Below, piece after piece: positions 2,927 to 58,306 of a DNA stretch of 64,000 bases (its first letter is position 1; each line of letters opens with the position of its first letter). The notes beneath the pieces were generated by a model, which was not told where the DNA came from, did no database searches, and saw only the letters and a program-made list of their open reading frames with translations. The translations under genes were made by a program, and so were the position numbers. Source of the stretch: Candidatus Yanofskybacteria bacterium RIFCSPHIGHO2_01_FULL_43_32 (GTDB lineage: Bacteria; Patescibacteriota; Minisyncoccia; 2-02-FULL-40-12; GWA2-44-9). Location of the stretch: assembly GCA_001794125.1 (NCBI GenBank), contig MGJF01000002.1:37751-101750 (forward strand), in the 5' to 3' direction.

Positions 2927-2979
2927 TGCGCCAATTGAACATTAAAAACAAGGATGGGGGAGTGATAAATAACAACCAC

Positions 2980-3780: not shown

Positions 3781-4703
3781 GATTTGAGGTCGTCAAAACG
3801 ATTTACAAGGCTGCGTGTTCCGATTCCAAAGTAGTTTTTCTAACAGGGGATTTGGGCCATGCTCATTTGGATGATTTCAGAAAAAATTTACCCGGCCAGT
3901 ATTATAATATCGGCATTGCTGAGCAAAACATGATAGGTATTGCTGCCGGACTTGCTCTTTCCGGCCACAGAGTGTTTGTTTATTCAATTGCTCCCTTTGT
4001 GACGCTGCGGTGTCTTGAACAAATTAAGGTAGATGTTTGTTATCAAAATGTTGGGGTCGTGGTTGTCGGAGTGGCCGCTGGCTATGCCTATTCAACATGC
4101 GGATGCACTCATCATGCGATTGAAGATGTTGCGGCCATGAAAGCATTGCCGAATATGCAGATATATTCGCCATCCAATTCATTAGAAGCGCGGTTGGTTA
4201 CAGAATATCTAATAAAAACATCGCATCCCGCCTATCTGCGCATCGGTAAAGGCGGGGAATTGAGCGCCGAAAAAGAATATGGCCTTGAAATCGGCAAGGG
4301 GTTAGTCGTTAAGCCTGGCAACGATATAACCATATTCGCCACCGGCACGATTGTAAATGAGGCGGTTGCCGCAAGCAATATTTTGGAGCAACACGGAGTC
4401 AGCGCAGAGGTGATAAATATACACACAATAAAACCCTTGGACAAAGAGCTTGTTGAAAAATCAGCTCAAACCAGAGATGCGGTATTTGTCCTAGAAGAAC
4501 ACAACATCATTGGCGGACTGGGTGAAAGCATCGCAAGAATAATCTGCGAATGTAATGGGAACAAGAAACCAATTTTCAAATGTCTTGGCGTTCCCGACGA
4601 ATACAACCATCGTGCAGGTAGCCACCAGTATATGTTGGGCTGTTATGGATTGAACGCAGAAGCAATTGCCAGACAAATTGTAGAATTATATAAAAAGGCC
4701 TAG
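3777..4703 (+). CDS. transketolase, C-terminal (pyrimidine-binding) subunit, copy 1
   Basis: GIAEQNMIGIAAGLALSGHRVFVYSIAPFVTLRCLEQIK; ATGA overlap with upstream stop. Confidence 0.8.
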   Translation: MRFEVVKTIYKAACSDSKVVFLTGDLGHAHLDDFRKNLPGQYYNIGIAEQNMIGIAAGLALSGHRVFVYSIAPFVTLRCLEQIKVDVCYQNVGVVVVGVAAGYAYSTCGCTHHAIEDVAAMKALPNMQIYSPSNSLEARLVTEYLIKTSHPAYLRIGKGGELSAEKEYGLEIGKGLVVKPGNDITIFATGTIVNEAVAASNILEQHGVSAEVINIHTIKPLDKELVEKSAQTRDAVFVLEEHNIIGGLGESIARIICECNGNKKPIFKCLGVPDEYNHRAGSHQYMLGCYGLNAEAIARQIVELYKKA

Positions 4704-6453: not shown

Positions 6454-6557
6454 ATTAGCTCTCCTTCAGTTATTATTTTCAATAAACTGGCCATAGAATA
6501 GAATACTTTTGGTGATTTGTCAAAAAAATGTAAAAAACTCGGCATCTGGTACTGAGC

Positions 6558-6585
6558 TTGATTTACTTCAAAATCATAGTATAAT
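6558..6585 (+). promoter_or_regulatory. sigma70-like promoter TTGATT-16nt-TATAAT (extended TAGTATAAT)
   Basis: Lies inside the ORF-track start 6509, so the real start is ATG 6620. Confidence 0.45.
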
Positions 6586-6619
6586 TTCGACACGCGATCT
6601 TTTAAAACTAGGCCACAAA

Positions 6620-7450
6620 ATGAATATAGACAAATTAAGCAAGAAGGCGAAATGGATCAGAAGCAGAGCCCTGGAAATGTGCATCAATGCCGGCAAGGGC
6701 CATCTTGGCGGCGCATTTTCCTGTACCGAAATTCTTGTCGCTCTTTACTATGGCGGTATTTTGAACATATCGCCCCTCTCAAAAAACAACTCCGACAGAG
6801 ACAGGCTGATATTCAGCAAGGGCCATGCCATGCTGGCTCTCTATGTAATTCTTGGAGATTTAGGATTTTTTGACGCCAAAGAATTGGAAGCCTACGGTAA
6901 AAATGGAACAATGCTCGGCGATCACCCTGATCACATGATACCCGGAATAGAAATCGCTTCCGGATCATTAGGCCATGGCTTAAGTGTTGCCTGCGGTCTT
7001 GCACTGTCTGCAAAAATGAACAACAAAAATTTTCTGACAGTGGCAATCTTGGGTGATGCTGAATGCAACGAGGGCTCCGTTTGGGAGGCAGCAACATTCG
7101 GTTGCAACTCCAAATTAAACAATTTGGTAGCAGTCGTAGACAACAACAGAATAGGCGCCACAGATTTTACGGAAAATTTTTCCGGTTCAATGCCGATGGA
7201 AAATAAATGGCAAGCATTCGGATGGCAGACGGTAAAAATTGACGGCCATAGTTTCAGAGATATCTTGTCTGGTTTTGAAAGAGCCAAGCAGTCAACGGAC
7301 AGACCCACGGCTATTATAGCCGAAACTATAAAAGGTAAAGGTATTTCATTCATGGAAAATAAATCTAATTGGCATCACGGCGCGCCCAAAGGCGAATTGG
7401 CCATTAAGGCCCGGCAAGAACTTGCAGACGGAGATAAAAATGGAAACTAA
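6620..7450 (+). CDS. transketolase, N-terminal subunit, copy 2 (paralog of 2980-3780)
   Basis: FSKGHAMLALYVILG, GSLGHGLSVACGLALSA, GDAECNEGSVWEA. Confidence 0.8.
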   Translation: MNIDKLSKKAKWIRSRALEMCINAGKGHLGGAFSCTEILVALYYGGILNISPLSKNNSDRDRLIFSKGHAMLALYVILGDLGFFDAKELEAYGKNGTMLGDHPDHMIPGIEIASGSLGHGLSVACGLALSAKMNNKNFLTVAILGDAECNEGSVWEAATFGCNSKLNNLVAVVDNNRIGATDFTENFSGSMPMENKWQAFGWQTVKIDGHSFRDILSGFERAKQSTDRPTAIIAETIKGKGISFMENKSNWHHGAPKGELAIKARQELADGDKNGN

Positions 7451-8387
7451 AAATTATACCGATTTGCGGGACGCTTTTTTTGAGGAGTTATATCTTCTGG
7501 CTTCGGCTGACAGCAATGTGGTTTTAATATACGGCGACCAGGGAGCTCAAACTTTCAAAAAATTCCAGCAAACCATACCTGGTCAAATAATTAACGGCGG
7601 AATCGCGGAACAAAATTTGATAGGTGTTGCGGCTGGCTTGGCCTTAGGCGGCAAAAAAGTTTTTGTCCACGCAATTGCCCCGTTCATTACCTTGAGATGT
7701 TATGAACAAATAAAAGTTGATCTGGGTTTAATGGGTCTTCCTGTTACCTTAGTGGGGATTGGAGCGGGGTACTCTTACGGCGACGCCGGACCCACACACC
7801 ATGCCGTTCAAGACCTGTCAATTTTGCGGGCAATTTCTGGAATGACAATCTTTAACGCATCCGATACTGTTAGCCTATCCCGTTTTGTTAAAATTGCTTA
7901 CGGGAACATTAAAGGACCTGTTTATATCCGATTTGATAAAGATAGTCCCTCTCAAATTTATACGGAAAAAGAAAGTTTTTGCGCAGGTTTGGCGAAAATA
8001 AGAAGCGGAAAAGATATAATTATTATTTCAACCGGTTTAATGGTTCACAGGGCCTTAGCAGTTGCGGATAAATTAAACTCATTGGGAATTGATGCCGGAG
8101 TAATTGATGTATATCGCATCAAACCGCTTAATTCTGTTTTGCTGGCAGAAGTCCTGGCCGGCTGTCAAAGGATTGTCGCCCTTGAAGAACACAGCCCTAT
8201 CGGCGGCCTTGGTTCGCTGATAAGCGAATTCATTTGCGATTCCGGATTGTCTACCGTTTCTCTGAAAAGAATCGCTCTTGAAGATAGCGATTGCTTTACT
8301 TACGGTACGCGTGAATATGTTCATACCCGAATTGGCTTAGACAAGGACACGCTTGTTGCCAGAATACGTGAGTGGCTCGTTTTATAA
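7440..8387 (+). CDS. transketolase, C-terminal subunit, copy 2
   Basis: GIAEQNLIGVAAGLALGGKKVFVHAIAPFITLRCYEQIK; start at ATG 7440 with GGAGA RBS, 11-nt overlap with upstream. Confidence 0.8.
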   Translation: METKNYTDLRDAFFEELYLLASADSNVVLIYGDQGAQTFKKFQQTIPGQIINGGIAEQNLIGVAAGLALGGKKVFVHAIAPFITLRCYEQIKVDLGLMGLPVTLVGIGAGYSYGDAGPTHHAVQDLSILRAISGMTIFNASDTVSLSRFVKIAYGNIKGPVYIRFDKDSPSQIYTEKESFCAGLAKIRSGKDIIIISTGLMVHRALAVADKLNSLGIDAGVIDVYRIKPLNSVLLAEVLAGCQRIVALEEHSPIGGLGSLISEFICDSGLSTVSLKRIALEDSDCFTYGTREYVHTRIGLDKDTLVARIREWLVL

Positions 8388-9362: not shown

Positions 9363-10325
9363 ATGCAGAAAGATTTAGAGCTTGAACTTTACCAATCGAT
9401 GTACCGAATGCGTGCCGCAGAGCGGGCCATTCAGCAAGAATATCCGAACAATCAAATGAAGACCCCGATGCATATGTCCATAGGAGAAGAAGGAATCGTT
9501 GCGGGCATTTGTACTGCCCTGAAGGAAAAGGCAAAATTCTACGGAACTTACCGTAGTCATGCACTTTACCTGGCTGTCACGGAAGAAACAGATGGTTTTT
9601 TTGCCGAGTTGTACGGTAAAGTTACAGGTCCAGCCGGTGGAAAGGCAGGCTCAATGCATTTGGCATCTCCTGATCACAATCTGATAATGACATCCGCCGT
9701 TGTCGGAACAACTATTCCGGTTGCAGTCGGCGGAGCATTCAGAGAAAAATACATGAATACGGACAAGATTGCCGTTGTGTTTTTTGGCGACGGCGCCGTA
9801 GATGAAGGCGTGTTTTGGGAAAGCTTGAATCTTGCCTGCTTGTGGAAATTACCGGTGCTGTTTGTCTGCGAAGATAACGGTCTGGCAATCCACACACCCA
9901 CATCTGTGAGGCGCGGATATGATTCGTTGGGAAAAATTGCCAGGCAATATAATTGTTTGGTCTATGATTCTTTTGAGCAAACCGATGTTTTGACTATTCA
10001 TGCTATGGCAAAAAAAGCTTATGCAGAGATTCAACGTTTCAGGATGCCTGCTTTGGCGATTATTCCTTACTATCGTTATTTGGAACATGTCGGTGTTAAT
10101 GAAGATTTTGATGTGGGATATCGTTCATGTGATGAGTTCGAACAATGGCTCGCGAAAGATCCAATAGCGCTTTTACGACGAAGGCTAATTAACCAGAACC
10201 AGGAAAATGCAGTAGTTTCAATTGAAGATGCAGTCAACAAACAGATTTTTATAAGTGTCCAAAAAGCAAAAGATGCACCATTCCCAAGACCCGAAGAACT
10301 TTACAGGGGGGTATACGGTGAGTAA
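9363..10325 (+). CDS. ThDP-dependent dehydrogenase E1 component, alpha subunit (PDH/acetoin-DH E1 alpha family)
   Basis: YRSHALYLA, GDGAVDEGVFWESLNLACLWKLPVLFVCEDNGLAIHT (ThDP motif), GGGAGG RBS. Confidence 0.8.
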   Translation: MQKDLELELYQSMYRMRAAERAIQQEYPNNQMKTPMHMSIGEEGIVAGICTALKEKAKFYGTYRSHALYLAVTEETDGFFAELYGKVTGPAGGKAGSMHLASPDHNLIMTSAVVGTTIPVAVGGAFREKYMNTDKIAVVFFGDGAVDEGVFWESLNLACLWKLPVLFVCEDNGLAIHTPTSVRRGYDSLGKIARQYNCLVYDSFEQTDVLTIHAMAKKAYAEIQRFRMPALAIIPYYRYLEHVGVNEDFDVGYRSCDEFEQWLAKDPIALLRRRLINQNQENAVVSIEDAVNKQIFISVQKAKDAPFPRPEELYRGVYGE

Positions 10326-11364
10326 GCGTATCATTACTTACGCTCAAGCGATTAACGAAGCTCTCCGGCAAGAAATGGAACGTGATTCAAGTGTCTTTGT
10401 TTATGGACTGGATGTCGCAGACCACAAAGGCATCAATGGAACAACGTCGGGACTAGCGGAAAAATTTCCGGGACGCTGTTTGAGTACGCCCCTATCAGAA
10501 GAAGCTTTGATGGGATTTGGTCTTGGTGCAGCTATCAATGGTCTGCGTCCGGTTAATGTTCATATTCGTGTTGAATTCTTACTTGTGGCTTTCAACCAGT
10601 TGGTAAATATGCTCGCCTCGGCCCGTTACGGTTCCAATGGTAAACTGTCCGTTCCAATTGTCATCAGAGTGTTGATTGGTCGCGGTTGGGGACAGGGATT
10701 CCAGCATTCAAAAAGCTTGCAAAGTATTTTTGCCCATATTCCCGGACTAAAAGTTATTATGCCGGCTACGCCATATGATGCTAAAGGTATGCTCATCGCC
10801 GCTATCCGCGACGATAATCCTGTTATTTGCATGGAACATCGGTTCCTGTTTTGGCAGGAAGGCGAAGTGCCTTTTGAGCCATACACCGTTCCTTTGGGCA
10901 AGTGCTCAATTCTTCGTTCCGGGTCGGACGTTACGATAGTGGCCAGCTCCTGGTCATGCGTTGACGCACTTGACGCGGCTAAAGTATTGGAGCGGAAACA
11001 CAATATTTTGGCCGAACTGATAAATGTGCGAACTATTGCACCCTTTGATGATGCAACAGTGAATCAATCTGTACGGAAAACCGGCCACTGTATTGTCGTG
11101 GATAGTGACTGGACTCATTGTGGGTTTTCCGCCGAAGTGGCAGCTCGTGTGCAGGAAGATTGTTTCGGCTCGTTGAGATCGCCTGTTACCCGAATCGGTT
11201 TTGCGCCGACTCATTGTCCGACAACCAGGCCTATGGAAGACCTGTATTATCCGAATGCGGAAACAATTATTCGGGTTACCGAAAAGAAGCTTGGCCTGAA
11301 GCCGGCCGATTTATCCGATGAAAAGTTCCACAATTACGAGAATAAGTTTAAGGGACCGTTCTAA
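10318..11364 (+). CDS. ThDP-dependent dehydrogenase E1 component, beta subunit (transketolase-like)
   Basis: ITYAQAINEALRQEMERDSSVFVYG...GLAEKFPGRCLSTPLSEEALMGFGLGAA; GTG start overlapping the alpha-subunit stop. Confidence 0.75.
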   Translation: MSKRIITYAQAINEALRQEMERDSSVFVYGLDVADHKGINGTTSGLAEKFPGRCLSTPLSEEALMGFGLGAAINGLRPVNVHIRVEFLLVAFNQLVNMLASARYGSNGKLSVPIVIRVLIGRGWGQGFQHSKSLQSIFAHIPGLKVIMPATPYDAKGMLIAAIRDDNPVICMEHRFLFWQEGEVPFEPYTVPLGKCSILRSGSDVTIVASSWSCVDALDAAKVLERKHNILAELINVRTIAPFDDATVNQSVRKTGHCIVVDSDWTHCGFSAEVAARVQEDCFGSLRSPVTRIGFAPTHCPTTRPMEDLYYPNAETIIRVTEKKLGLKPADLSDEKFHNYENKFKGPF

Positions 11365-21594: not shown

Positions 21595-24312
21595 ATGGTA
21601 AATAATCCTAAAATAATTGTCACTGTCGGACCGGCTACCCACAGTTTAAATCATCTTGAAAAAATGAAGGACTTGGGTGTGGATTTTATCCGCGTCAACA
21701 TGTCTCACTCAACAACAGACTACCTTAAAGATTTTATCAGGCTTTCTAAAAAGGCCGACTTGCCGTTTATAATCGATACTCAAGGTTCACAGGTCAGGAC
21801 TGGTGATTTATCAAGACCCTCAATACAGCTGAAAGAAAATCAATACATAAAAATTTACACTAAGACATCATTGGACTTAAAGGACAATGGCCTATGCCTT
21901 AAACCGTCGGGCATAACAGAAAAACTTGAACCGGGGGATTTGATATACATTGATTTTAATAGTTTGGTTTTAAGGGTTAGCGATGTTTCAACATCTTCAA
22001 GAGGATATATTACTGCTCAAGCCATCAGTGATGGATGCGCCGGCAACAACAAGGCTGTTGTCATCGAATCAGTTTTTAGGAATAAAATAAATTTGCCGGT
22101 TTTAAGTCCGGTTGATTTTGAGGCGATTAAAATTGGTCTGAGAGAAAAAATCGGATATATAGCCGTCTCGTTTGTTCGTCGTGTTGAGGACATTGATTTT
22201 GTCAGAAAAGCCACAAAAAATTCAATGAAAATAATTTCAAAGATTGAATGTGTTGACGCCTTGAAAAACCTGGATGCTATAGTTAAGAAAACTGACCTTA
22301 TCCTTATTGACCGCGGAGACTTAAGCAAGGAAATACCCCTTACAGCCATACCAATGGCTCAAAAAATGATAATGAACACAGCCAAGAAATATAAAAAAGA
22401 CGTATTTGTAGCAACAAATCTTCTGGAGACAATGATTAGCAGTAAAAAGCCAACCCGGGCAGAAGTAAATGATATAGCGAATACTATTTTAGATGGAGCT
22501 GCAGGACTTGCGTTGGCAGCGGAGACTGCAATCGGCAAATATCCTTTGGAATCCATAGCTACACTTAAAAAGGTAATAAGCCACACAATATCTCCTGCGG
22601 TAAATTTGCATGACGGTAACTCATTGATTACCAGACCTCATGGCGGGAAATTGGTTAATTTAATACCCGATTCTATGCCAAGTTCAAAATACCTTGCATC
22701 ACTGAAGAAAGTTAAACTTGATCCAGAACATCAGATGGACGTTGAACTTATGGGTGTCGGTGTTTATAGTCCGCTTGAAGGATTTATGATCAAAAAGGAT
22801 TTGGATAGTGTTGCCGACAAAATGCGCCTTGCTAACGGCACTATCTGGCCGCTGCCTATTGTTCTTGATGTAAGCAAAGAAGAGTCCTGTAAGTTTAAAA
22901 TCGGGGATGCCATTGCCCTTATGGACAGTGAAAATTCGGTTATGGCGATATTGCACTTAGCCCAAAAATACCCTTTTAATAAAAAGAGGATTATAAAAAA
23001 AATATTTGGTACTGACAGTATAAAACACCCTGGCGTTAAGATGATGAATAACATGAAAGACATTTTTATTGGAGGCAAGATAGAGTTTATCAAAAAAAGA
23101 AATTCCGAGACAAAAGGGTATGAATTAACTCCCGCTCAGGTAAGAAAGCTCATTGAAGAAAAGGGGTGGCTAAAGGTAATAGGGTTTCACACCCGGAATG
23201 TTATTCACCGCAGCCACGAGTTTATACAACTCGAAGCATTAAGAAAGGAATTTGGTGACGGGCTTTTTGTTCATCCGATTATAGGCAAGAAAAAACCGGG
23301 GGACTTTAATGCAAAATATATTATTAGGTCATACGAAACAATGATGAAAAATTTTTATCCAAAGGATTCCGTTATCTTTTCGGTTTTCTCAAGCTATTCC
23401 CGTTATGCCGGTCCAAGAGAGGCTTTGTTTACGGCTATTTGCCGGAAGAACTACGGGTGCAGTCATTTTATTGTCGGCCGGGATCATACCGGGGTTGGTG
23501 ATTTTTATAAACCGACTGCGTCTCATGATATTTTTGATAAGTTTCCGGATCTTGGAATAAAACCAGTTAAATTCCACCAAGTCTTTTACTCCAAGAAATT
23601 AGACCAGCATATGCATGAAAAAAATGTTTCCCGTCATGATGAAAAAGATAAACTTCATATCAGTGGAACCCAAGCCCGCAAAATGTTTTTGAACGGAAAA
23701 ATACCGCCGAGTTGGTTTATGAGGCCGGAAATTTCAAAACCAATTCTGACTGCCATCAAAAGAGGTGAAAAAGTTTTTGTGAAAAACGCTGTGGTTGTTT
23801 GGTTTACTGGACTAAGCGGTTCTGGAAAAACAACAATTGCTACCGCACTCTCAGGGAAACTTTCTAAGATGGGTAAAAAGGTCCTTATGTTGGATGGTGA
23901 CGAAATAAGAAAGACCATCAGCAAAGATTTGGGTTTTTCAAGAGACGATATCAGGGAAAACAATAAACGCATTGCTGAGTTGGCAAAATCAAAGATGGGA
24001 GACTACGACTTTATTCTAGTTCCCGTTATTTCACCCCTTAAAGAAGATCGGCTAACTGCCAGAAAATTAATAGGGGACAATTTTGTGGAGCTTTTTGTTA
24101 ATGCTTCTTTGGAAAAATGCAAAGAACGGGACGTTAAGGGTCTTTATGGAAAATATGCTGCCGGTTTGGTCGTTAATCTTATAGGAGCCAGTTCATCTAG
24201 TTCATATGAATGCCCTGAAAATCCTGACATAGAGATAAATACTGAAGATTCAATTGTTAACAAAAACATCAATCAGGTAATCAAAACTTTGAATAAGAAA
24301 AAAATAATATGA
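21595..24312 (+). CDS. tri-domain fusion: pyruvate-kinase-like domain + sulfate adenylyltransferase (ATP sulfurylase) + adenylylsulfate (APS) kinase
   Basis: aa 1-330 PK-like (IVTVGPATHS...RVNMSHS...IIDTQGSQVRTG; SKIECVDALKNLDAIVKKTDLILIDRGDLSKEIP; KKPTRAEVNDIANTILDGAAGLALAAETAIGKYPLESI); middle GFHTRNVIHRSHEFIQ (ATP-sulfurylase QTRNxxHRAH); C-terminal VVWFTGLSGSGKTT P-loop (CysC-like). Confidence 0.8.
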   Translation: MVNNPKIIVTVGPATHSLNHLEKMKDLGVDFIRVNMSHSTTDYLKDFIRLSKKADLPFIIDTQGSQVRTGDLSRPSIQLKENQYIKIYTKTSLDLKDNGLCLKPSGITEKLEPGDLIYIDFNSLVLRVSDVSTSSRGYITAQAISDGCAGNNKAVVIESVFRNKINLPVLSPVDFEAIKIGLREKIGYIAVSFVRRVEDIDFVRKATKNSMKIISKIECVDALKNLDAIVKKTDLILIDRGDLSKEIPLTAIPMAQKMIMNTAKKYKKDVFVATNLLETMISSKKPTRAEVNDIANTILDGAAGLALAAETAIGKYPLESIATLKKVISHTISPAVNLHDGNSLITRPHGGKLVNLIPDSMPSSKYLASLKKVKLDPEHQMDVELMGVGVYSPLEGFMIKKDLDSVADKMRLANGTIWPLPIVLDVSKEESCKFKIGDAIALMDSENSVMAILHLAQKYPFNKKRIIKKIFGTDSIKHPGVKMMNNMKDIFIGGKIEFIKKRNSETKGYELTPAQVRKLIEEKGWLKVIGFHTRNVIHRSHEFIQLEALRKEFGDGLFVHPIIGKKKPGDFNAKYIIRSYETMMKNFYPKDSVIFSVFSSYSRYAGPREALFTAICRKNYGCSHFIVGRDHTGVGDFYKPTASHDIFDKFPDLGIKPVKFHQVFYSKKLDQHMHEKNVSRHDEKDKLHISGTQARKMFLNGKIPPSWFMRPEISKPILTAIKRGEKVFVKNAVVVWFTGLSGSGKTTIATALSGKLSKMGKKVLMLDGDEIRKTISKDLGFSRDDIRENNKRIAELAKSKMGDYDFILVPVISPLKEDRLTARKLIGDNFVELFVNASLEKCKERDVKGLYGKYAAGLVVNLIGASSSSSYECPENPDIEINTEDSIVNKNINQVIKTLNKKKII

Positions 24313-25247
24313 AAATAAGGCTTGGCAAAAGACAACCCTTGACGAAAAAACTCCTTTTAGTTGAGGGCATAGCAAGAGCTGGTAAATTTTTATTGGCTAA
24401 TGTTTTGAGCGGGTTTGAGCACATTGAGCCGGTTCAACTGTATGGTTTATTAGAACAAATACCCGTGTGGGCTAATTTGGGATTAATTGATAGAAATACC
24501 GCAAAAGAGATTTTGAGGTTAGAAATTGATACACATTGTTATGAAATGCTTACTGGACGAAATTTTAACTACAGAGTGTCGGACAAATCATCAATTTTTA
24601 ATATTCCACGTTATCAAAAATACCTTGCCCGCTCTAAAGAGAAAGACATAGACAAGATAATGAAAGAATATGATCAGGAAAAACCGTTCAGTTTTTTCAT
24701 TATGCACGAACTGATGCCGTACATCGGAATATATTTTGAAACCTTTCCAGAGTTGAAGGTTATAAGCATCAGGAGAAATCCTGTTGACTTGGTTTTTTCA
24801 TGGTACAAACGCGGTATCGGTCAAAGATATGGCAAGGATCCTAAATTTTTCAAAATTCCTATTCAGGGCAAATATGGCTCCGCTCCCTGGTTTTTACCCG
24901 AATGGAATAAGCTTTCGGAAATAGATAGGATAATACTTTCCATCAAAAAACTCTTCGACATGTATGAGGTGTCGTACCGGTGCTTGCCTCACAAGTATAA
25001 AAAAAGAATTATGTTTGTTTCATGTGAAGATGTTTTGAGTAATCCTGTGAGCGTTATTGATAGATTGGGAAATTTTTTGGGCAAAAAAGCTCTTCCAGAA
25101 ATGAAGTCTATTTTAAAAAGAGAAAAACTGCCTGTAATTAAAAAGCTTGAATTAAGGAGCCAAAATCTAGAGGAAATTAAAAAATTGGCTTCAAAAAAGT
25201 ATTTAAATGTTTTAATTAAACTAAAAAGGGAATATGAAAAATCTTAA
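24309..25247 (+). CDS. putative PAPS-dependent carbohydrate sulfotransferase
   Basis: GIARAGKF 5'-PSB-like loop and ISIRRNPVDLVFSWY resembling the 3'-PB RxxRxPxDxxxS motif; ATGA overlap with the PAPS-synthase fusion. Confidence 0.5.
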   Translation: MKIRLGKRQPLTKKLLLVEGIARAGKFLLANVLSGFEHIEPVQLYGLLEQIPVWANLGLIDRNTAKEILRLEIDTHCYEMLTGRNFNYRVSDKSSIFNIPRYQKYLARSKEKDIDKIMKEYDQEKPFSFFIMHELMPYIGIYFETFPELKVISIRRNPVDLVFSWYKRGIGQRYGKDPKFFKIPIQGKYGSAPWFLPEWNKLSEIDRIILSIKKLFDMYEVSYRCLPHKYKKRIMFVSCEDVLSNPVSVIDRLGNFLGKKALPEMKSILKREKLPVIKKLELRSQNLEEIKKLASKKYLNVLIKLKREYEKS

Positions 25248-47144: not shown

Positions 47145-47318
47145 AAACGCGAATGCAGAACAGATCTGGCAAGGCAGCCTAAAGAATAGCTGACACAACC
47201 TCCATGCATGCTGCGGAGCATACTTTTCTAAAATACTACTGATTTTATAAAAGCATGCTCCCTCCGCCGGTTGTTTTGGTTGTGTATAATGTTTGGCAAT
47301 AGAGGTTCAAATTTTTTA

Positions 47319-47942
47319 ATGAAAAATCTTAAAGATGCAATTATTGTTCTTGGTGGCGGAATAGAGCCAGATGGCTCATTGCCGGACATACCAAAACTTA
47401 GAATAACTAAAGGCATTGAGCTACTGAATAATGGAGTTGCTCTAAGAATTATCATGTCTGGGAAATGGGGATTTTGGCTTGAGAAATAACCAGCCAGAAC
47501 CGAAGCCGAAGCAATGAGGGAATACGCTGTTGGTTTAGGCACTTCAGCAGACGCTATTCTTAAAGAGGACGTTTCAAAAGACACAATTGGCAACGCATAC
47601 TTCTGTAAACTGAATTTTTTAGAACCTAACGATTGGCACAATATTGTTATTGTAACTTCGGATTACCACATACCAAGAACTCGCTATATTTTTGAGAAAG
47701 TTTTAGGAAGTGGTTACACAATTGAATTTGCGTCAGTAGGAAGCAAGCTATCGCCCGAAGAATTTGCTGCTAAAATTAATAAAGAAAATAAGACCACAGA
47801 GTTTCTAAAAAAGTGGTTTGACTCAATAAGTCCAGGAGATACCAAAGCCATTAAAGAACTGATGTATGCCAAACATCCAGGTTATACTGAAAATCCAGAA
47901 GTAACCAAGGAGCAATTATTAAAAATGTTAGGCAGAAGTTAA
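47319..47942 (+). pseudogene. DUF218 (YdcF/ElyC/SanA) family gene interrupted by an in-frame TAA at 47487-47489
   Basis: IIVLGGGIEPDGSLPD...IMSGKWGFWLEK*PARTEAEAMREYAVGLG...VIVTSDYHIPRT; both halves are in the same frame and span the DUF218 SGGxG...EAEAM signature. Confidence 0.5.
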
Positions 47943-48266: not shown

Positions 48267-50996
48267 ATGCCATTTTTATCTAAGATATTCGGGGACGCAA
48301 ATGCCCGTTATATTAAGTCATTACAACCCACAGTTGACCGCATAAACTTACTCGAAAAGAACTTTGAGAAACTTTCGGACACACAATTAAAGGAAAAGAC
48401 CTCTGAATTCAGACAACGGCTCAACGGCTCACCGGGTGAGCCGTTGGACGATATTTTACCTGAAGCCTTTGCCGCGGTCAGGGAGGCGTCAAAACGCACA
48501 TTGGGCCAGCGTCATTTTGATGTTCAGCTGATGGGCGGGATAGCTCTGCACCGCGGGAATATCTCTGAAATGAAAACCGGAGAAGGCAAAACATTGGTCG
48601 CCACATTGGCCGCATATTTGAACGCCATTACCGGCGCCGGTGTACATGTTGTTACCGTGAACGATTATCTGTCAAGGCGCGATGCGGTTTGGATGGGACA
48701 GATTTACAATGCTCTCGGTTTGACCACGGGCTGCATCAATCACGAAGCGAGTTATTTGTACGATTTTTCTCATACCGACAAGAGCGAAGATAAAGAACGC
48801 GACACCGAAGGAAGCTTTAAAATTGTCCATGAATTTTTAAAACCGGTCACAAGACGGGAGGCATACTTGGCCGATATTACTTACGGCACGAATAATGAAT
48901 TTGGTTTTGATTATCTCCGCGACAATATGGCATATGAAGAAGCGCAGATGGCCCAGGCCAAAGGCCACAACTTCGCAATTGTTGACGAGGTGGACTCTAT
49001 TTTAATAGACGAGGCCAGAACGCCTTTGATAATTTCCGCGCCGGTTGAGGATTCCGGGAAATTATATGAAACATTTTCAAAAATCGTCCCGCGTCTTGTA
49101 GAAAACGAGGATTATAACGTAGATGAAAAATTAAAAGCTGTTTCAATAACTGAAAAAGGAATAGAAAAAGTTGAAAAGACTTTGGGGCTTACCAATATAT
49201 ATGACGAAGGCGGTACCCGGCACGTTCACCATATGGAGCAGGCCTTGAAAGCCCAGATATTGTTTAAACGCGACCGTGATTATGTCGTGAATCCGTCAGC
49301 TGACGGAGGCGAGGTAATAATTGTGGACGAATTTACAGGGCGCATGATGCCCGGCCGGAGATGGTCCGAAGGTCTGCATCAGGCCGTTGAAGCCAAAGAA
49401 GGTGTAAAAATAGAAAAAGAATCCAAGACATTGGCGACAATTACTTTTCAGAATTATTTCCGTTTGTATAAAAAGCTTTCAGGTATGACCGGAACCGCCC
49501 AATCATCCGCTGAAGAATTTCACAAGGTATATAAATTAAATTCTTTTGTTATTCCGACAAACAAGCCGATGGTCAGAAAGGACTTGCCGGACAGAATTTA
49601 TAAAACAGAAGCCGGTAAATTCAGGGCAATTGTTAGGGAAATAAAAGAAATGCACGAAAAAGGTCAGCCGGTTCTCGTGGGTACGGTTTCAATTGAGAAG
49701 AACGAATTGTTGTCGGCGATGCTTGAAAGAGAAGGTATTTCTCATAATGTTTTGAATGCTAAACAACATGAGAAGGAAGCCGAAATGCATGCTCAAGCCG
49801 GAAGGCAGGGAGCGGTTACGGTGGCTACTAATATGGCAGGAAGAGGCGTGGATATTATTCTCGGTGGAAATCCGCCTTCGGCTGATGAAGCGAGCAAAGC
49901 TCGCGAAGGCGGCGGTTTACATGTTATCGGCACTGAACGCCATGAAGCAAGGCGGATAGACGACCAGTTAAGAGGCCGCGCCGGAAGACAGGGCGACCCC
50001 GGTTCTTCAAGATTTTTTGTTTCAGTAGAGGACGAGCTGGTTAGGATATTTGGAGGAGATAAATTAAAGAATCTTATGGACCGGCTCGGCGTGGGAGAAG
50101 ATGACGTTATAGAGAACAGGTTTGTTTCAAGCGCCATTGCCCAGGCCCAAGCCAGAATCGAAGGCCATAATTTCGATATCAGGAAATATGTTCTGGAATA
50201 CGATGATGTCATGAACAAGCACCGCGAAGCGATATACCGTTTGAGAAAAGAAATTCTGTCATCCGAAAGCGCAAAAGAGATTGTTTTAGATTATCTGCGG
50301 ATTCAAATCAGGAATTTGATAAACTTTCATACCCAAGGGCACTCGGAGTGGTCTCCTGGCCGTGCTTTAGCCGGCCGAGGAACTCTGTCGGACTATAAAT
50401 GGAATACAGAAGAAATAGGGGAATCATTGAAAGCGTTATTGCCTGTCGGCGACGAAATTAGTGCTCAATTAGTTGAAACCGCCAAGACTGGAAACAAAGA
50501 CGAATTAATCGAATTTGTTATCAAAAAATCGGAGGAATTATACGAAATAAGAGAAAAAGAAATGGGCGCGGAATCCGCCGGTTGGCGGATGCGACGCCTG
50601 GAAAAGCTTGTCTTGCTCCGTACGATTGACGAATTGTGGATTGACCATATTGAATCTATGGAATATTTGCGAGATTCGGTGCGCTTGCGGGCTTACGGCC
50701 AGAGAGACCCGTTGGTTGAATATAAGATAGAAGGACAGAATATGTATAATCAGCTGATGATGTCGGTTGGAGCTCAAACGGCTAATCTTATATTTAAAGT
50801 AAGTTTTATGGAACAACCAAAGATGGCCAATATTCAGGAGAAACGGCCGGATATTGTCGGAGATTCACATAAACATCAAGAAATAACAAACGAACCGGCG
50901 CATCGAAACACGGAATCATCGGAATCTAAACTCGGCCGCAACGATCCCTGCTGGTGCGGGTCAAAAAAGAAATATAAGAAGTGCCATGGGAAATAA
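48267..50996 (+). CDS. secA: preprotein translocase ATPase SecA
   Basis: [35 protein letters not shown] Walker [20 protein letters not shown]-terminal [15 protein letters not shown] zinc finger. Confidence 0.95.
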
Positions 50997-52005
50997 ACGA
51001 CAAATTATAGTTGCAGTATCAGGCGCGTTTGACCCGATTCATATCGGGCATATTCGGTTGATCAAAGAAGCCAAAAGATTAGGCGATAAGTTGGTGGTTA
51101 TTTTGAACAACGACAACTGGCTGTTAAATAAAAAGACCCAAGTTTTTATACACCAAAATGAACGCAAGGAGATATTGGAAGCGATTAAAGAAGTTGGCGA
51201 GGTGATTATCAGCAGTCATTCCGCAAATCCCAAAGACATGAGTGTTTCCAGAGAACTGTTTAAGATCAAGCCAGACATTTTTGTTAAAGGAGGCGATCGA
51301 AAAAGCAAGAAGGATATTCCCGAAGCCGAAGCGTGCAAAAAAATAGGATGCAGAATTGTTTTTAATATCGGCCATGGCGGAAATTTTAAATACAGCTCAT
51401 GGCTTTTGGCGAATTACATCAGGAGCTTAAACCGCATTAAACAAATTGATGTAAACAAAACCACGGCTAAAATAAGACAAGTCTTTAAGAAATCTAAAAC
51501 CCCGGTTTCTTTAAACATTAAATCGGCATTAAGCGAGATTATTTTGAACGTCATGAACCGGCGCCGGGCTTTCGGTTTGTTCGTTATTTTGGGCTGGCAC
51601 AATAAGTGGAATAATTTTACGGATGTTCCCGACAGCAGTCAGGATATTTATAAAAAACACCATGTAAATTTGAAGGACCTCATTAAAGAAGGCAAGCATT
51701 ACAAAATTGAATCTACCCTTGATTTTGACGGGGCAATTTTAATTGATAAAAACGGCAACATTTTAGATTCGGGAATTATCATTGAAGGTTTGCGGCCCAA
51801 AGTGATTGCCGATAAAATTAACCCCGGCAAATTTAAAGACCTTTCCCAGCAATTCGGGTTTAAGGGCAAGGTCCATTCGCGCCACCTATCGGCGATTGCC
51901 GCCTCATATATTTTCAAAGGAACAACGGTATTTACCGTTTCTGAAGAGAATGATTCTTTTCACATTTTCGAGAACGGTAAAATAGCTTACCAATACGGCA
52001 AATAA
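50986..52005 (+). CDS. HxGH nucleotidyltransferase (TagD/RfaE-domain-II-like cytidylyl/adenylyl-transferase) fused to a C-terminal diadenylate-cyclase (DAC)-like domain
   Basis: N-terminal [30 protein letters not shown] and [10 protein letters not shown] (TagD [28 protein letters not shown]; RfaE LVKGGDYK); C-terminal [14 protein letters not shown]...[12 protein letters not shown]...[21 protein letters not shown] parallels the DAC HDGAVII...GTRHRAALGISE...VSEETGxIS. Confidence 0.55.
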
Positions 52006-53828: not shown

Positions 53829-56222
53829 ATGCCCAAAAACTATCAACCGAATTTTTTAAAGGAGAACGATAAAAACAAAGGCGCTCTAATTAAAAAGGCG
53901 GGCCGTTATCTTATAATTCTGTTGGCGGTTTTATCAATGCTGTCTTTTGTTGCCGTGGCCGGTTCGCTTACTCCTTCCGCTTCGCCTGCCAGCACGATGA
54001 AGACATTGCAGGAGATATACGATTCCATCGCCGGAACATTTGATTCATCTTCCATTACCGCAAGCCAGAACGGTTCTCTCATCCAGGGTTTAAAATATAT
54101 TTCCAATAATCTTTTCTGGGCCTCTTCATCCGACGATATTTACAACATCAACACGGGCAACGTCGGCATCGGGACGACTTCGCCCGATTCTGTTTTGGAA
54201 GTTGCTTCCGCATCGGCTAAATTCATCCTCCGCTCTACCGGCTCCGCCGCATCCGTTTCCATTGACTTCCAGCCTGCCGGAGGAGCGTCATCCAGCAACC
54301 AAAGCAAATTTACCATCAGAGCAGGAGGCTTGGCTTCAACTCTGGGCGAGCGTCTGGAATTTCTTAACGGCAATATGACCAGCTTGATGACCATTGCAAG
54401 CTCCGGCAATATTGGTATCGGGACAACGGCGCCCGCCTCGCTTCTTACCGTTCAGGGCCGGGGAGAATTCTATGGCACGGCTTCGGCTTCTTATCTCCTG
54501 ACCGGCAACACTCTTCAAGTAGGAGGCTATTCATCTGCCGCATACTCAAGATTCGGGATAGGCGCAACAAGTGAATCTCATTACATCGCCGGGGCAAATG
54601 ACCTTTTTGTCACCGAAGACTTTGAAGTTGATGGCTCCGTCTCATTTGCCGGACCGGCATCAATATCCAATACGCTTTATGTATCCACGCTTGGGAAAAC
54701 AGGCAACGTCGGAATCGGTGTATCAAACCCAACAGCGTTGCTGACACTCAAGTCGACCGGAGCTCTCGGCTGGGACGACAGCTCGGGAACGGCGGATGTG
54801 AAATTGGTGCGTGACGGGTCTAAGCAACTGGCAATGCGAAACGGCACAAACGACCAGCAGTTCAGCGTTTATGGTACGTATACCAGCGGTACAAACTATC
54901 GCCGTTTGCGCATAAACGTAGCTAGTACGAATGTGAATATTTATTCGGAGTCTGCAACTCAAAGCGCGGCGGATATGAACATCGGCACCTTAGGCAGTTC
55001 TGTGTTGCAGTTTGTCACCAATAGCAGCAACCGATGGCATATAGATGCGAGTGGCAACTTTGAGGCAAGTACGGATAACAGCGTGGATATCGGCGCCAAT
55101 CAAGCCAACCGTCCAAAAACCGGCTATTTTGGCACGTCGCTCGGTGTCGTTTCCGGAGGCACCCTCAATACCACTTTTGAGGTCGGGGGTACCGCATCTG
55201 TATCGGGCAATGCATTCTTTGCAAGCAATGCTTCAATATCCGGGGCGCTGGAAATTGTAACCTTGAACCCGGCGGCAGCCACTCATGTCTGCCGGGATGC
55301 CGGAAATGTTTTATCAACCTGTTCCTCGGCTGCAGAATGGGCGCCGGCTTTGCCTGATAATGATATTGAAGAAGGAGATATTGTGTCAATTGACTTTGAG
55401 ACTCCTAATCCTTATGGCGACGAGCACAGCCCGTTTGTTATCAAAAAATCATCGACTTCTTACGAAGGAGGAATAATCGGCTATGTTACCGACTCTAAAT
55501 TAGGCGGTGACGGGCCTAAATTAAACGATAATTACCGTCCGGTGGCAGTAGTGGGTTATTGGCCGGTCAAAGTCAATTTAGAAAACGGCCCCATCAAAAG
55601 GGGCGACCATATCACCTCTTCTGCTACGCCTGGTGTAGGCATGAAAGCGACAACACCGGGGATGATTGTGGGCATTGCCTTGGATGAGGCGAATAATATG
55701 CCTGACGGCGCTTCGTTTGTAAAGATAAGGATATTTACCAATCTAAGCTATTGGGCACCCAGCGTGGATTCGATTCTGGATTCTGCTTCTGTTGACCCGG
55801 CGTTTGCGCTCCAAACGACAACCGGCAGCCGCTTCACCCTTTTAATGCTTTTTGGCTTCATTCTTGAACAACTCAAGCAAGTCGGAGTCATAATCCACGA
55901 TGGTCTTGTCCAGGCCAACATTATCAAAGCCAACCAGCAATTCTGCGTCGGCAACGCCTGTGTTACGGAGGACCAATTCAAACAGCTTCTTGAAAATGCC
56001 GGACTGATGCAAACAAATTCTCCGTTACCGGAGCCGATCCCTTCGCCCTCGGCAACACCAACCCCTGAAGCTATGCCGGAAGCGACTCCAGAGGAAACTC
56101 CAACCCCGACTTCTGAACCGGCTTCGGAAGAGACGCCTGTTCCCGTCCCTGAACCCGTTTCTGAACCAACTCCCGAACCAACTCCCGAACCAACTCCAGC
56201 CCCGGATTCATCCGGCCAATAA
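53829..56222 (+). CDS. large secreted/cell-surface protein with N-terminal signal-anchor, Ser/Thr/Gly/Ala-rich beta-rich body and C-terminal Pro/Thr/Glu-rich tail
   Basis: TM ILLAVLSMLSFVAVAG then the conserved module GSLTPSASPASTMKTLQEIYD...; the C-terminus has TPEPTPEPTPAP repeats. Confidence 0.55.
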   Translation: MPKNYQPNFLKENDKNKGALIKKAGRYLIILLAVLSMLSFVAVAGSLTPSASPASTMKTLQEIYDSIAGTFDSSSITASQNGSLIQGLKYISNNLFWASSSDDIYNINTGNVGIGTTSPDSVLEVASASAKFILRSTGSAASVSIDFQPAGGASSSNQSKFTIRAGGLASTLGERLEFLNGNMTSLMTIASSGNIGIGTTAPASLLTVQGRGEFYGTASASYLLTGNTLQVGGYSSAAYSRFGIGATSESHYIAGANDLFVTEDFEVDGSVSFAGPASISNTLYVSTLGKTGNVGIGVSNPTALLTLKSTGALGWDDSSGTADVKLVRDGSKQLAMRNGTNDQQFSVYGTYTSGTNYRRLRINVASTNVNIYSESATQSAADMNIGTLGSSVLQFVTNSSNRWHIDASGNFEASTDNSVDIGANQANRPKTGYFGTSLGVVSGGTLNTTFEVGGTASVSGNAFFASNASISGALEIVTLNPAAATHVCRDAGNVLSTCSSAAEWAPALPDNDIEEGDIVSIDFETPNPYGDEHSPFVIKKSSTSYEGGIIGYVTDSKLGGDGPKLNDNYRPVAVVGYWPVKVNLENGPIKRGDHITSSATPGVGMKATTPGMIVGIALDEANNMPDGASFVKIRIFTNLSYWAPSVDSILDSASVDPAFALQTTTGSRFTLLMLFGFILEQLKQVGVIIHDGLVQANIIKANQQFCVGNACVTEDQFKQLLENAGLMQTNSPLPEPIPSPSATPTPEAMPEATPEETPTPTSEPASEETPVPVPEPVSEPTPEPTPEPTPAPDSSGQ
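56163..56198 (+). repeat. 3 x 12-bp tandem repeat (gaaccaactccc) encoding (EPTP)n
   Basis: Perfect or near-perfect tandem copies in the C-terminal tail of the surface protein. Confidence 0.8.
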
Positions 56223-56225
56223 TCC

Positions 56226-56507
56226 ATGGTTAATTTCCAAACCGGCAAAATAAAGAAAATAGGAAGAGAGGCGCTGATAATTATTATCGGCATCTTTGCC
56301 GTCATATATATAATAAGAACAGTCCAGGCCGGAAGCCTGACTCCGTCGGCGTCTCCGGCTTCAACCCTGAAAACTTTGCAGGAAGTTTATGATCCTTTGG
56401 TTGGCACATCTCACGATTCTTCTTCAGTCGTTGCAGGCCAGAATGGAGATGCCCTGCAGATAATGAAATGCATAATAAGCAAACTAAATACCGGATCGTG
56501 TCCATAG
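56226..56507 (+). CDS. short ORF encoding a second copy of the N-terminal signal-anchor/GSLTPSASPAST module (possible truncated paralog or 5' part of a frameshifted gene)
   Basis: IIIIGIFAVIYII TM then GSLTPSASPASTLKTLQEVYDP...DSSSVVAGQNG paralleling residues 35-90 of the upstream protein. Confidence 0.3.
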   Translation: MVNFQTGKIKKIGREALIIIIGIFAVIYIIRTVQAGSLTPSASPASTLKTLQEVYDPLVGTSHDSSSVVAGQNGDALQIMKCIISKLNTGSCP

Positions 56508-58306
56508 TTGCTCTTCAGCGAGCGATTCTTCTGGCGGCTGTCGCGGCGTATCTTGCGACGCCTTTTGGCGCCGGAGCCTCATCCGAAGACGGCACAATAA
56601 ATTCAACGTTTAAATATGCCTGGGGAGAAAACATCGGCTGGATAAATTTCGGTACATCCGAGGGCAATGTTCATATAACCGATTCAGGGATGACCGGCTA
56701 TGCCTGGGGAGAGAATGTCGGCTGGATATCGCTTAACTGTTCCAATACAAGTTCGTGCGGCACGGTGGACTATGGCGTTTCAAATGACAGTCACGGAAAT
56801 CTTACCGGCTATGCCTGGGGCGAGAATACAGGCTGGATATCATTTGATAATGTATTTAGCAGTGTGAATATAAGCCAGACCGGGGTGTTCAGCGCTTATG
56901 CCTGGGGCGAGAATACAGGCTGGATATCATTTAACTGTTCCAATACAAGTTCGTGCGGCACGGTGGACTATGGACTCAAGACAGATTATATCCCCAGCCC
57001 GTCAGGGGGGGGAGGATTTGGTGATCCGCCATCTCCGAGCAGTACGCCGGCTCCTTCACCGACACCAGAAGAATCTCCGACCCCAAGTCCGTCGGTCTCA
57101 CCCAGTCCGGAAATAACTCCTGAACCATCAGCAGAGCCATCCGTCACGCCGCCTCCGGCCATGCCGGAAGCTCCGCCTCCCGATCAAGCCCCTCCGGCTC
57201 CGCCTACTTCTTCCGGTCCGCCATTCATATCGGTGCCGGGAATCGGCGTCTTGCCTCAAGGAGTGCAGGATGTGATAAACCAAACAGTGTTGAATGTTGT
57301 TGAGGCTGTCCAGACAGTCACTAAAGTGACCGTAGAGGTAGCCAAGGTTGTTGCCCCGGTTGTTGAAAAATCGGCGGAACCAGTCACTCAAGTTACGACT
57401 GCCACGACGGGAGTCTCAAGCGCGGTAGCGGTTGCGCCTATGGCCAACTCGGCCAGTAACGCCGGCAATATACTTGAATTCTTACGCCAGAATCTCTGGG
57501 TGGCGGTGGGTCTTAAACGCAGAAGAAAACCATGGGGCACCGTTTATAACGGGAAAACGAAACAGCCGATACCTTTTGCTAAAGTTGAACTTTTAAACCC
57601 AAGTTCCCGTCTTTTGGAATCCCAGGTCACCGATATGAACGGGCGCTATGGTTTTTTGGTCACCCCCGAGTCCACGGAACAAAAAGTCGTTGAGATCCAA
57701 ATCCAGGCCCGTAAAGAAGAATACGTTTTCCCGGCGCAAGGCATTATTCCGCCTAACGATACGATGCTATACGGCAATGTTTATGTCGGCGGCATTGCCA
57801 AAGTTGATGTTGAAGCTCTGGCGGGTTTTGATATTCCGATGAGCAAGCTTACGCCAGACAAATTATTGGATACGGCCGTTAAAAAACCGCTTGCCAAGCT
57901 CAACAACAGCATTACGATCCTGTTAAATTTCGGTTTTTATTTGGGATTGGTCATGGCGCCTCTGTCTTATATTCTGACTCCGAGCAATTTTAATCTGGCT
58001 ATACTGGCGGGTTTCTTTGTTGTAAACATCCCCCGATTCGCCGGCTTGACTCAAAGGCAATTTGGTATGGTGGTAGATTCTTCTACAAGCGTTCCGATAC
58101 CCTTTGCCTTGATAACTCTGAACGACCGCGAAGGGAAGCGGGTCGGATTTACGGTATCCGATGAGAGGGGCCGTTATTTCCTGCTCGTGCCTAAAGGACA
58201 CTATTCAATCCTGGCTTATACGCCGGCGACAATAATTCCGACCAGGACTTTCAGTCGGGAATTTAAAACCAGAAAAGGCTGGATAAAAGAAGAGCTCCGG
58301 TTATAA
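56468..58306 (+). CDS. secreted/membrane protein with 4-5 tandem ~40-aa YAWGENxGWIxF(NCSNTSSCGTVDYG) repeats, Pro-rich linker, CarboxypepD_reg-like domains and C-terminal TM helices
   Basis: Own AxA signal-peptide-like segment (AAVAAYLATPFGAGA|SS); repeats visible in protein and DNA. Confidence 0.5.
   Translation: MHNKQTKYRIVSIVALQRAILLAAVAAYLATPFGAGASSEDGTINSTFKYAWGENIGWINFGTSEGNVHITDSGMTGYAWGENVGWISLNCSNTSSCGTVDYGVSNDSHGNLTGYAWGENTGWISFDNVFSSVNISQTGVFSAYAWGENTGWISFNCSNTSSCGTVDYGLKTDYIPSPSGGGGFGDPPSPSSTPAPSPTPEESPTPSPSVSPSPEITPEPSAEPSVTPPPAMPEAPPPDQAPPAPPTSSGPPFISVPGIGVLPQGVQDVINQTVLNVVEAVQTVTKVTVEVAKVVAPVVEKSAEPVTQVTTATTGVSSAVAVAPMANSASNAGNILEFLRQNLWVAVGLKRRRKPWGTVYNGKTKQPIPFAKVELLNPSSRLLESQVTDMNGRYGFLVTPESTEQKVVEIQIQARKEEYVFPAQGIIPPNDTMLYGNVYVGGIAKVDVEALAGFDIPMSKLTPDKLLDTAVKKPLAKLNNSITILLNFGFYLGLVMAPLSYILTPSNFNLAILAGFFVVNIPRFAGLTQRQFGMVVDSSTSVPIPFALITLNDREGKRVGFTVSDERGRYFLLVPKGHYSILAYTPATIIPTRTFSREFKTRKGWIKEELRL
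56618..56982 (+). repeat. array of degenerate ~100-bp intragenic direct repeats; two ~80-bp copies (about 56696-56776 and 56894-56982) share a long identical core (ccaatacaagttcgtgcggcacggtggactatgg)
   Basis: Direct comparison of DNA strings. Confidence 0.75.

Follow-up and report, generated by a model that had tools for sequence, protein, structure and literature searches.

The 64,000-nucleotide stretch analysed here, referred to as the window, covers positions 37,751 to 101,750 of contig MGJF01000002.1 of Candidatus Yanofskybacteria bacterium RIFCSPHIGHO2_01_FULL_43_32. It harbours a gene whose predicted product joins an HxGH nucleotidyltransferase domain to a divergent diadenylate cyclase (DAC) domain of the DisA_N type. 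The open reading frame (ORF) lies on the plus strand at 50986-52005, exactly where the original prediction, made from the sequence, had placed it. The product has 339 amino acids, begins with an ATG start codon, and matches, at 100% identity, 'hypothetical protein A3G51_02450' in a metagenome-assembled genome (MAG) of Candidatus Yanofskybacteria. The features of the gene are as follows.

50986-52005, plus strand: two-domain gene, HxGH nucleotidyltransferase and divergent DAC domain (ORF list, exact protein match, and alignment)
50986-51429, plus strand: N-terminal cytidylyltransferase-like (HxGH) domain, residues 1-148, TagD/ECT/HldC-like (Pfam, NCBIfam, PDB, and Foldseek)
51040-51051, plus strand: HxGH motif H19-I-G-H22, the N-terminal nucleotide-binding signature, which reads catatcgggcat (sequence, and alignment of 29 relatives)
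51430-51570, plus strand: helical linker, residues 149-195, matching the N-terminal helices of stand-alone relatives
51571-52002, plus strand: divergent DAC (DisA_N) fold domain, residues 196-339
51727-51735, plus strand: DGA motif D248-G249-A250, counterpart of the catalytic, metal-binding Asp site of DACs (aligned to HDGAV of CdaA structures)
51787-51873, plus strand: family-specific insertion, residues 268-296, separating the DGA strand from the RH helix and carrying G291-F292
51877-51888, plus strand: S298-R299-H300-L301, counterpart of the canonical T-R-H-R (aligned to GTRHRAA of CdaA)
51940-51948, plus strand: S319-E320-E321, counterpart of the phosphate- and metal-binding motif VSEETG of the CdaA type (aligned to VVSEETG)

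Domain composition and active site

The C-terminal domain matches the Pfam DAC family (PF02457) over residues 221-332, corresponding to profile positions 26-118 of 119 (E 1.1e-4, 22.2 bits), and the isolated domain scores 24.4 bits. The same family is matched at E<=0.01 by 43 of the 56 relatives of the domain, the best at E 8.6e-11. A profile of the broader family, searched against PDB sequences, gave 18 matches, 17 of them diadenylate cyclases (best E 1.1e-4), in which the characteristic motifs pair as kpGmiivLGyd with RTGALIVLGYD, fDGAiLi with HDGAVII, GtRHlsAi with GTRHRAAI, and lSEEtG with VSEETG. An AlphaFold monomer model of residues 161-339, built on the family alignment, reached a predicted local distance difference test score (pLDDT) of 95.4 and a predicted template-modelling score (pTM) of 0.91. 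It has the alpha/beta fold of DACs, and the top 50 Foldseek matches of this model were all DACs. Since the Pfam matches of the relatives, the family profile against PDB, and Foldseek agree, the C-terminal domain is identified, from sequence and model, as a true but divergent member of the DAC fold superfamily. The DAC-type domain proposed at the outset is thereby borne out, as is the order of its motifs (DGA, RH followed by Leu, SEE), which is that of the DisA_N core. Two findings had been named in advance as speaking against such a domain, namely a missing DisA_N match and the loss of the catalytic residues on structural alignment; both were looked for, and neither was encountered.

The N-terminal domain matches Pfam CTP_transf_like (PF01467) over residues 12-105 (E 3.3e-15, 56.9 bits against a cutoff of 21). 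It also passes the cutoff of the generic NCBIfam model TIGR00125 (cyt_tran_rel; 59.6 bits against 27.7) and, with its HxGH motif, belongs to the cytidylyltransferase-like HxGH superfamily. The best NCBIfam matches are rfaE_dom_II (TIGR02199, 73.2 bits) and g3p_cytidyltrns (TIGR01518, 69.2 bits). Among PDB sequences, human ECT (3elb), the Thermoplasma entry 3glv, and TagD of B. subtilis (1coz) match best, with E of about 1e-12, and HldC (5x9q) is a weaker match than ECT or TagD (E 4.9e-6). The structural neighbours detected by Foldseek are TagD, ECT, the cytidylyltransferase domain of Fom1, and HldC (E about 1e-6, TM-score normalised to the target, TMt, 0.66-0.77), with E 6.7e-7 and TMt 0.71 for 1coz and TMt 0.66 for the HldC structure 5xf2. 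Weak matches to NCBIfam PRK05379 (E 0.016-0.083) extend over the HxGH region, and the scores of the NMNAT family were insignificant. An N-terminal nucleotidyltransferase of the TagD/RfaE-II type, as first proposed, is in line with all four kinds of match (PF01467, NCBIfam, PDB, and Foldseek), and the profile scores place the domain in the cytidylyltransferase-like superfamily, outside the TagD and RfaE-II equivalogs.

Similar to TagD/ECT/CCT and HldC, the N-terminal domain has the HxGH fold, at 26-33% identity, and the HxGH, K-K, R60, and (V)DEV(I) stretches align with TagD. However, the C-terminal motif RTEGISTT of TagD is replaced by GGxxxSSWLL, in which the pair S137-S138 stands where the ISTT-like motif would be. 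Across an alignment of 29 full-length relatives, which are 61-83% identical to the query, residues H19, G21, H22, K50, R60, and S137-S138 do not vary. Because its catalytic motifs are invariant, the domain is probably an active nucleoside triphosphate:phospho-alcohol or phospho-sugar nucleotidylyltransferase. None of TagD, ECT, CCT, and HldC carries a DAC domain.

Conservation in the C-terminal domain was assessed in a family alignment of 106 sequences, comprising the 56 domain relatives and the genes from 50 genome loci described below. The DGA motif is kept almost throughout (D248 in 104 of 106, G249 in 97, A250 in 101), and so are R299 and H300 (101 each), S319 (100), E320 (84), and E321 (89). 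Position 301, where canonical DACs have the second Arg of RHR, is occupied by Leu in 63, Ile in 16, and Thr in 5 of the 106 sequences, and Arg is rare. The change from RHR to RHL had been noticed beforehand; the second Arg is replaced by a hydrophobic residue throughout this family of more than 100 sequences, and the alignment identifies RHL as a family trait and not as decay in one gene. The family also carries an insertion of about 20 residues beyond canonical DACs, with G291 (101 of 106) and F292 (102 of 106) nearly invariant; the model shows it as a pair of short helices (residues 271-278 and 286-289). The spacing from D248 to R299 is 51 residues in the fusion protein; for the counterpart in CdaA we take it to be about 32 (D171 to R203, B. 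subtilis CdaA numbering).

Among the known DACs, CdaS, the sporulation-specific enzyme of Bacillus (2fb5), is similar in layout. Like CdaS, the stand-alone relatives, and residues from about 150 to 339 of the fusion protein, are soluble proteins of about 200 amino acids in which short N-terminal helices precede the DAC domain. CdaS differs in having the canonical RHR, no GF insertion, and no fused nucleotidyltransferase, and neither NCBIfam nor any other sequence-level family match connects it to the fusion protein. CdaS is also confined to spore-forming Bacillota, where a survey found it in 22 species, all Bacillota (PMC12901056). With the membrane-anchored CdaA/DacA, the fusion protein shares the alignable DGA, T/S-R-H, and VSEE(T)G motifs. 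It lacks the three N-terminal transmembrane helices of the TIGR00159-type proteins, does not neighbour cdaR or glmM (cdaA usually shares an operon with both), has RH followed by a hydrophobic residue instead of RHR, carries the extra insertion of about 20 residues, and is only 14-20% identical. The first-strand G-x-x-I-V-L-G-(Y/W) aligns with RTGALIVLGYD of DisA from M. smegmatis. Nonetheless, in DisA the DAC domain is N-terminal and is accompanied by a linker domain, an HhH DNA-binding domain, and RHR, whereas the fusion protein has none of these and its DAC domain is C-terminal, ending at residue 339. No transmembrane region, HhH domain, or PK_C-like domain was detected in the fusion protein, and no NCBIfam DAC family appeared among its matches up to E 10. 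As anticipated by the original prediction, none of the five classical DAC classes carries a nucleotidyltransferase at the N-terminus, and by sequence comparison the fusion protein belongs to no classical class.

Distribution, gene neighbourhood and Nudix partners

Assemblies from NCBI, JGI, ENA, and Logan together yielded 614 protein clusters with the full-length fusion architecture. Among the 120 clusters listed of these 614, query coverage is 95-100%, identity reaches down to 62%, and the named carriers are Yanofskybacteria, Taylorbacteria, or Paceibacterota. About one sixth of the relatives listed already carry both Pfam matches in their public annotation. The cluster data mark the fusion as real and under selection.

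A phmmer search of 1.84 billion representative proteins revealed 82 clusters related to the DAC-like domain, mostly stand-alone proteins of 190-260 amino acids. A genome scan was performed with one genome per GTDB species, the close-family alignment, and two exact peptide patterns, a design that under-counts carriers. It yielded 50 loci, of which 20 encode fusions (about 336-360 amino acids, with HxGH) and 30 stand-alone proteins (about 187-237 amino acids). At none of the 30 stand-alone loci did a cytidylyltransferase-like gene lie within 6 kb. Since the DAC-like domain stands alone at 30 of the 50 loci, it appears to have a function of its own and not to be a mere regulatory appendage of the transferase. 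The comparison of the two forms identifies the domain as older than the fusion. The linker of the fusion protein (residues from about 150 to 195) is homologous to the starting helices of the stand-alone proteins, and therefore the fusion is best described as a transferase attached end to end to a complete protein that already existed. Fused loci and some stand-alone loci have the HPF-secA...PDDEXK neighbourhood in common, which suggests that the fusion arose in place.

The stand-alone form occurs mostly in Parcubacteria-type genomes. Two distant stand-alone members, P0164 and P0204, are annotated from DPANN archaea (Nanoarchaeota and Woesearchaeota), and one JGI record among the distant relatives is named 'DisA with diadenylate cyclase activity'. 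As far as sequence relationships tell, the divergent DAC family is common to two groups of ultra-small symbionts, the candidate phyla radiation (CPR) and DPANN. The stand-alone carriers L033-L042 and L046 form a high-GC group (57-66% GC) whose proteins are 60-84% identical to one another. The titles of these genomes conflict (Gammaproteobacteria, Acutalibacteraceae, Vicinamibacterales, Binatia, and Patescibacteria), and we treated the labels as unreliable; the group probably consists of mislabelled or mis-binned MAGs of one lineage.

In the window, the fusion gene is flanked by secA and iPGM. The upstream neighbour, given as context and lying outside the protein, is:

48267-50996, plus strand: secA (ORF list and sequence)

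The placement of the gene directly after secA agrees with the earlier description, but the overlap between the 3' end of secA and the 5' end of the fusion gene measures 11 nucleotides in the ORF list and the sequence, and not 10. SecA finishes with its usual zinc-binding tail. The recurrent neighbours of fused genes are secA, HPF, a PDDEXK protein, an M16 peptidase, an RNase-H-like protein, and an alpha/beta hydrolase. In relatives with the order HPF, secA, and the fusion gene, a gap of about 160 nucleotides or intervening genes separate the last two, and the overlap with secA is not conserved. Adjacency to secA was therefore rejected as a functional link and attributed to clade-level synteny. 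A conserved operon partner was likewise rejected, as neighbour clustering recovered only clade-level synteny for fused genes, and no dominant neighbour of the stand-alone genes.

Nudix genes are the one recurrent nucleotide-related partner of the DAC-like domain, present at 7 of the 50 loci and in one fusion. P0129 and P0202 (loci L004 and L057) are fusions of the DAC-like domain and a Nudix domain whose Nudix box is intact, and in both contigs an ECF-type sigma factor follows. Homologous Nudix genes lie 7 nucleotides (L052) and 457 nucleotides (L048) downstream of stand-alone genes, and a second type of Nudix abuts the fused genes in L013, L014, L015, and L023. The positions of the Nudix genes are:

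L013: 4989-5462
L014: 5021-5476
L015: 5708-6172
L023: 5009-5467 and 6479-6916
L048: 6994-7626
L052: 6074-6559

The Nudix link is suggestive at the level of sequence. A precedent for an HxGH nucleotidyltransferase and a Nudix hydrolase in one gene exists in NadM-Nudix (nicotinamide mononucleotide adenylyltransferase and Nudix hydrolase). Here, in contrast, the Nudix tracks the DAC-like domain, even in members without a transferase (P0129, L052, and L048). A role in anti-phage defence was also considered and rejected, as PADLOC gave no match for the fusion protein or four stand-alone relatives; the sole weak match lay on the Nudix part of P0129.

Other genes of the window

A six-frame scan with hidden Markov models and motifs detected no second DAC in the window. 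The scan of positions 1-64000 at Rfam gathering thresholds detected no RNA family, that is, no tRNA, riboswitch, or other structured RNA, and hence no ydaO riboswitch.

The region from about 1 to 42900 harbours genes predicted to participate in surface-glycan and nonulosonic-acid biosynthesis, an island that is very large for a small genome. It includes NeuB, a CMP-sugar synthetase, a UDP-GlcNAc 2-epimerase, two DegT aminotransferases, a PseB-like dehydratase, a formyltransferase, and a GT11 fucosyltransferase-like protein. Also present are GT2 proteins, a flippase, a Bac_transf priming transferase, two B12-radical SAM enzymes, and a dTDP-sugar epimerase. Three successive split pairs of transketolase/E1 type (2926-4703, 6509-8387, and 9363-11364) lie within 9 kb, each with an N-terminal gene binding thiamine pyrophosphate and a C-terminal pyrimidine-binding gene, with short-chain dehydrogenases interleaved. 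These pairs may be sugar-modifying, transketolase-like enzymes of the glycan island. At 21595-24312 (plus strand), a 905-amino-acid fusion combines a pyruvate-kinase barrel (PF00224, residues 4-321), PUA_2, ATP-sulfurylase, and adenosine 5'-phosphosulfate kinase, and a sulfotransferase gene follows at 24309-25247 with a 4-nucleotide overlap. This joining of pyruvate kinase to a synthase of 3'-phosphoadenosine-5'-phosphosulfate within the glycan island is unusual, and suggests that this CPR bacterium may bear sulfated glycans at its surface.

Upstream of secA, a DUF218 (YdcF-like) gene at 47271-47942 (plus strand) appears as two ORFs in different frames, of 72 and 142 amino acids, and the only match to the DUF218 profile covers its positions 46-118 and falls in the second ORF. 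Frameshifting, decay to a pseudogene, or an error in sequencing could account for the split. Two large proteins are encoded at 53829-58306 (plus strand). One has 797 amino acids, no Pfam match, and a tail rich in Pro, Thr, and Glu; the other has 612 amino acids and CarboxypepD_reg-like domains. Both are probably secreted or located at the surface. The GC content in this region rises to 48-51%, compared with 36-42% over much of the remaining window.

Predicted function and its alternatives

Domain identities, fold, motif conservation, and distribution were computed directly. Regarding function, we favour, with modest confidence, a reading in which the C-terminal domain would be a soluble, divergent synthase of cyclic di-AMP (c-di-AMP). 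The protein would be a soluble two-domain enzyme whose last 190 residues or so represent a complete member of the divergent DAC clade. The DAC-like domain would bind ATP and a divalent metal via D248, S298-R299-H300, and S319-E320-E321. Two such domains would meet head-to-head and condense two ATP to c-di-AMP; head-to-head pairing is a feature of all DACs studied (PMC8573169). In the Yanofskybacteria-type lineage, a stand-alone DAC-like protein would have been joined end to end behind a TagD/ECT/HldC-like transferase, which may tie second-messenger synthesis to a pathway of nucleotide-activated precursors, probably of the cell envelope. This coupling is proposed by analogy, because CdaA, which is inhibited by the cell-wall enzyme GlmM (PMC8573169), offers a precedent for a DAC wired to envelope metabolism; the parallel with CdaA/DacA is conceptual. 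Alternatively, a dimeric transferase domain might merely position or gate the cyclase domains.

Mutational data on characterised DACs are consistent with the conserved residues having catalytic roles. In DacM, the single mutants D112A and G113A retained trace activity and R143A formed no product, R143 being the first Arg of RHR, which touches the ribose (bioRxiv 10.1101/2022.03.11.483894). The DacM-sensitive positions (the Asp, the Gly, and the first Arg) are all among those kept in the 106-member family, and strong purifying selection on the catalytic set argues for catalysis by the DAC-like domain. With RHR changed to AAA, M. tuberculosis DacA lost both ATP binding and activity (PMC3328451), and M. 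bovis CdaM lost activity (PMC13022847). Our literature search on the second Arg retrieved such triple mutants and one mutant of the first Arg, and no data on this single residue.

Several observations weigh against c-di-AMP synthesis, or against parts of the proposal. While the DGA motif and the fold are present, the PF02457 score of this protein lies under the gathering score of 27, the full RHR motif is missing, and a profile of close relatives found no DAC among PDB sequences at E<=10. The family-wide loss of the second Arg might have abolished or altered catalysis. The conserved insertion beside the active-site helix could block the head-to-head dimer or change specificity, and both changes may leave room for altered specificity or oligomerisation. 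In the N-terminal domain the equivalog cutoffs are missed by far (69.2 against 165.4 bits for TagD, and 73.2 against 181.5 for RfaE-II). The recurrence of Nudix beside the DAC-like domain is puzzling, because c-di-AMP offers no pyrophosphate bond to cleave. Finally, no c-di-AMP receptor or phosphodiesterase was recognised, and no ydaO riboswitch detected, in the 64-kb window, which is only a part of the genome.

Some of these observations would be accommodated if the DAC-fold domain were catalytic with a product other than c-di-AMP, such as linear pppApA or another pyrophosphate-bearing nucleotide, to be processed by Nudix. The hydrophobic residue at position 301 and the near-invariant G291-F292 insertion fit this alternative, as do the several independent forms of Nudix adjacency or fusion described above. 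Nudix enzymes work on nucleoside-diphosphate-X compounds, of which c-di-AMP is none. However, the other catalytic residues of DACs are all kept, which is the simplest sign of unchanged chemistry; a Nudix is present at only 7 of the 50 loci, several of them with common synteny; and the stand-alone genes have no dominant partner. Genuine DACs also vary at secondary positions, as with the adenine-stacking Tyr, which is not conserved in DisA or CdaS (bioRxiv 10.1101/2022.03.11.483894). We therefore regard a different product as rather unlikely. Its bolder form is that the CPR/DPANN clade makes a signal or intermediate with a pyrophosphate or 5'-triphosphate (pppApA, or ApnA-like), which is turned over by Nudix and, in Yanofskybacteria, made in concert with the fused HxGH transferase; this is speculative and unlikely. 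It is quite unlikely that the domain is a non-catalytic module, binding ATP or c-di-AMP and regulating the N-terminal nucleotidyltransferase, which was the second option of the original prediction. Inactivated enzyme domains are often reused as second-messenger receptors, as noted for GGDEF and EAL domains (PMC12448109), and the sub-threshold Pfam score and the lost Arg would suit such a fate. Nevertheless, a domain that only binds nucleotides would not be expected to preserve the Asp and the SEE glutamates almost without exception. At 30 of 50 loci, moreover, the domain occurs by itself with no transferase in the vicinity, and it is also fused to another partner, Nudix.

A further possibility concerns the other half of the protein, in which the cyclase would be active and the HxGH domain a non-enzymatic module for ligand sensing or dimerisation. 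According to Galperin's 2023 work, the N-terminal domains of characterised DACs are reportedly regulatory, and scores far under the TagD and RfaE-II equivalog cutoffs are compatible with a changed role. The N-terminal domain of CdaS is also reportedly autoinhibitory (PMC4110313). A non-enzymatic role is very doubtful for a domain that keeps HxGH, K50, R60, and S137-S138 without exception in 29 sequences, the most distant at 61% identity, and whose fold is close to that of catalytic domains (TMt 0.71-0.77). As the sequence derives from a MAG and the gene overlaps secA by 11 nucleotides, an assembly or gene-calling artefact joining two adjacent genes was also weighed. This is hardly credible given the same unbroken architecture in 614 clusters from several sources, the fusion at 20 independent species-level genome loci, and a linker with a homologue in the N-terminal part of the stand-alone proteins. 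An artefact would predict that most independent assemblies break the reading frame between the two domains by a stop codon or a frameshift, which was not observed.

Searches of the accessible literature found no description of a fusion of a DAC with a cytidylyltransferase, TagD, or HldE, nor of DACs in CPR or Parcubacteria. The classification published by Galperin in 2023 is said to comprise 22 DAC families, and the CTP_transf_like-DAC architecture may already be among them. What appears to be new here, from the sequence comparisons, is a divergent DAC clade centred on CPR and DPANN, with a new fusion partner. Signalling by c-di-AMP is regarded as near-universal in Gram-positive-type bacteria, and we know of no description of it in CPR/Patescibacteria. 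A Pfam-based census of gut genomes reported 0% DAC-positive Patescibacteria (PMC12901056). Screens based on Pfam can miss this divergent DAC family because it sits just under the Pfam threshold.

If the domain is active as a c-di-AMP synthase, many Parcubacteria and some DPANN archaea would have a second-messenger system that has gone uncounted. The absence of a supposedly essential second Arg, together with the insertion by the active site, could inform the mechanism and regulation of DACs. If the domain is inactive or makes another product, the DAC fold would gain a new function, and a product other than c-di-AMP would represent a new nucleotide-signalling chemistry specific to ultra-small symbionts. 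The TagD/ECT-like fusion and the Nudix partners provide testable leads on what the signal may be coupled to in organisms that are not yet culturable.

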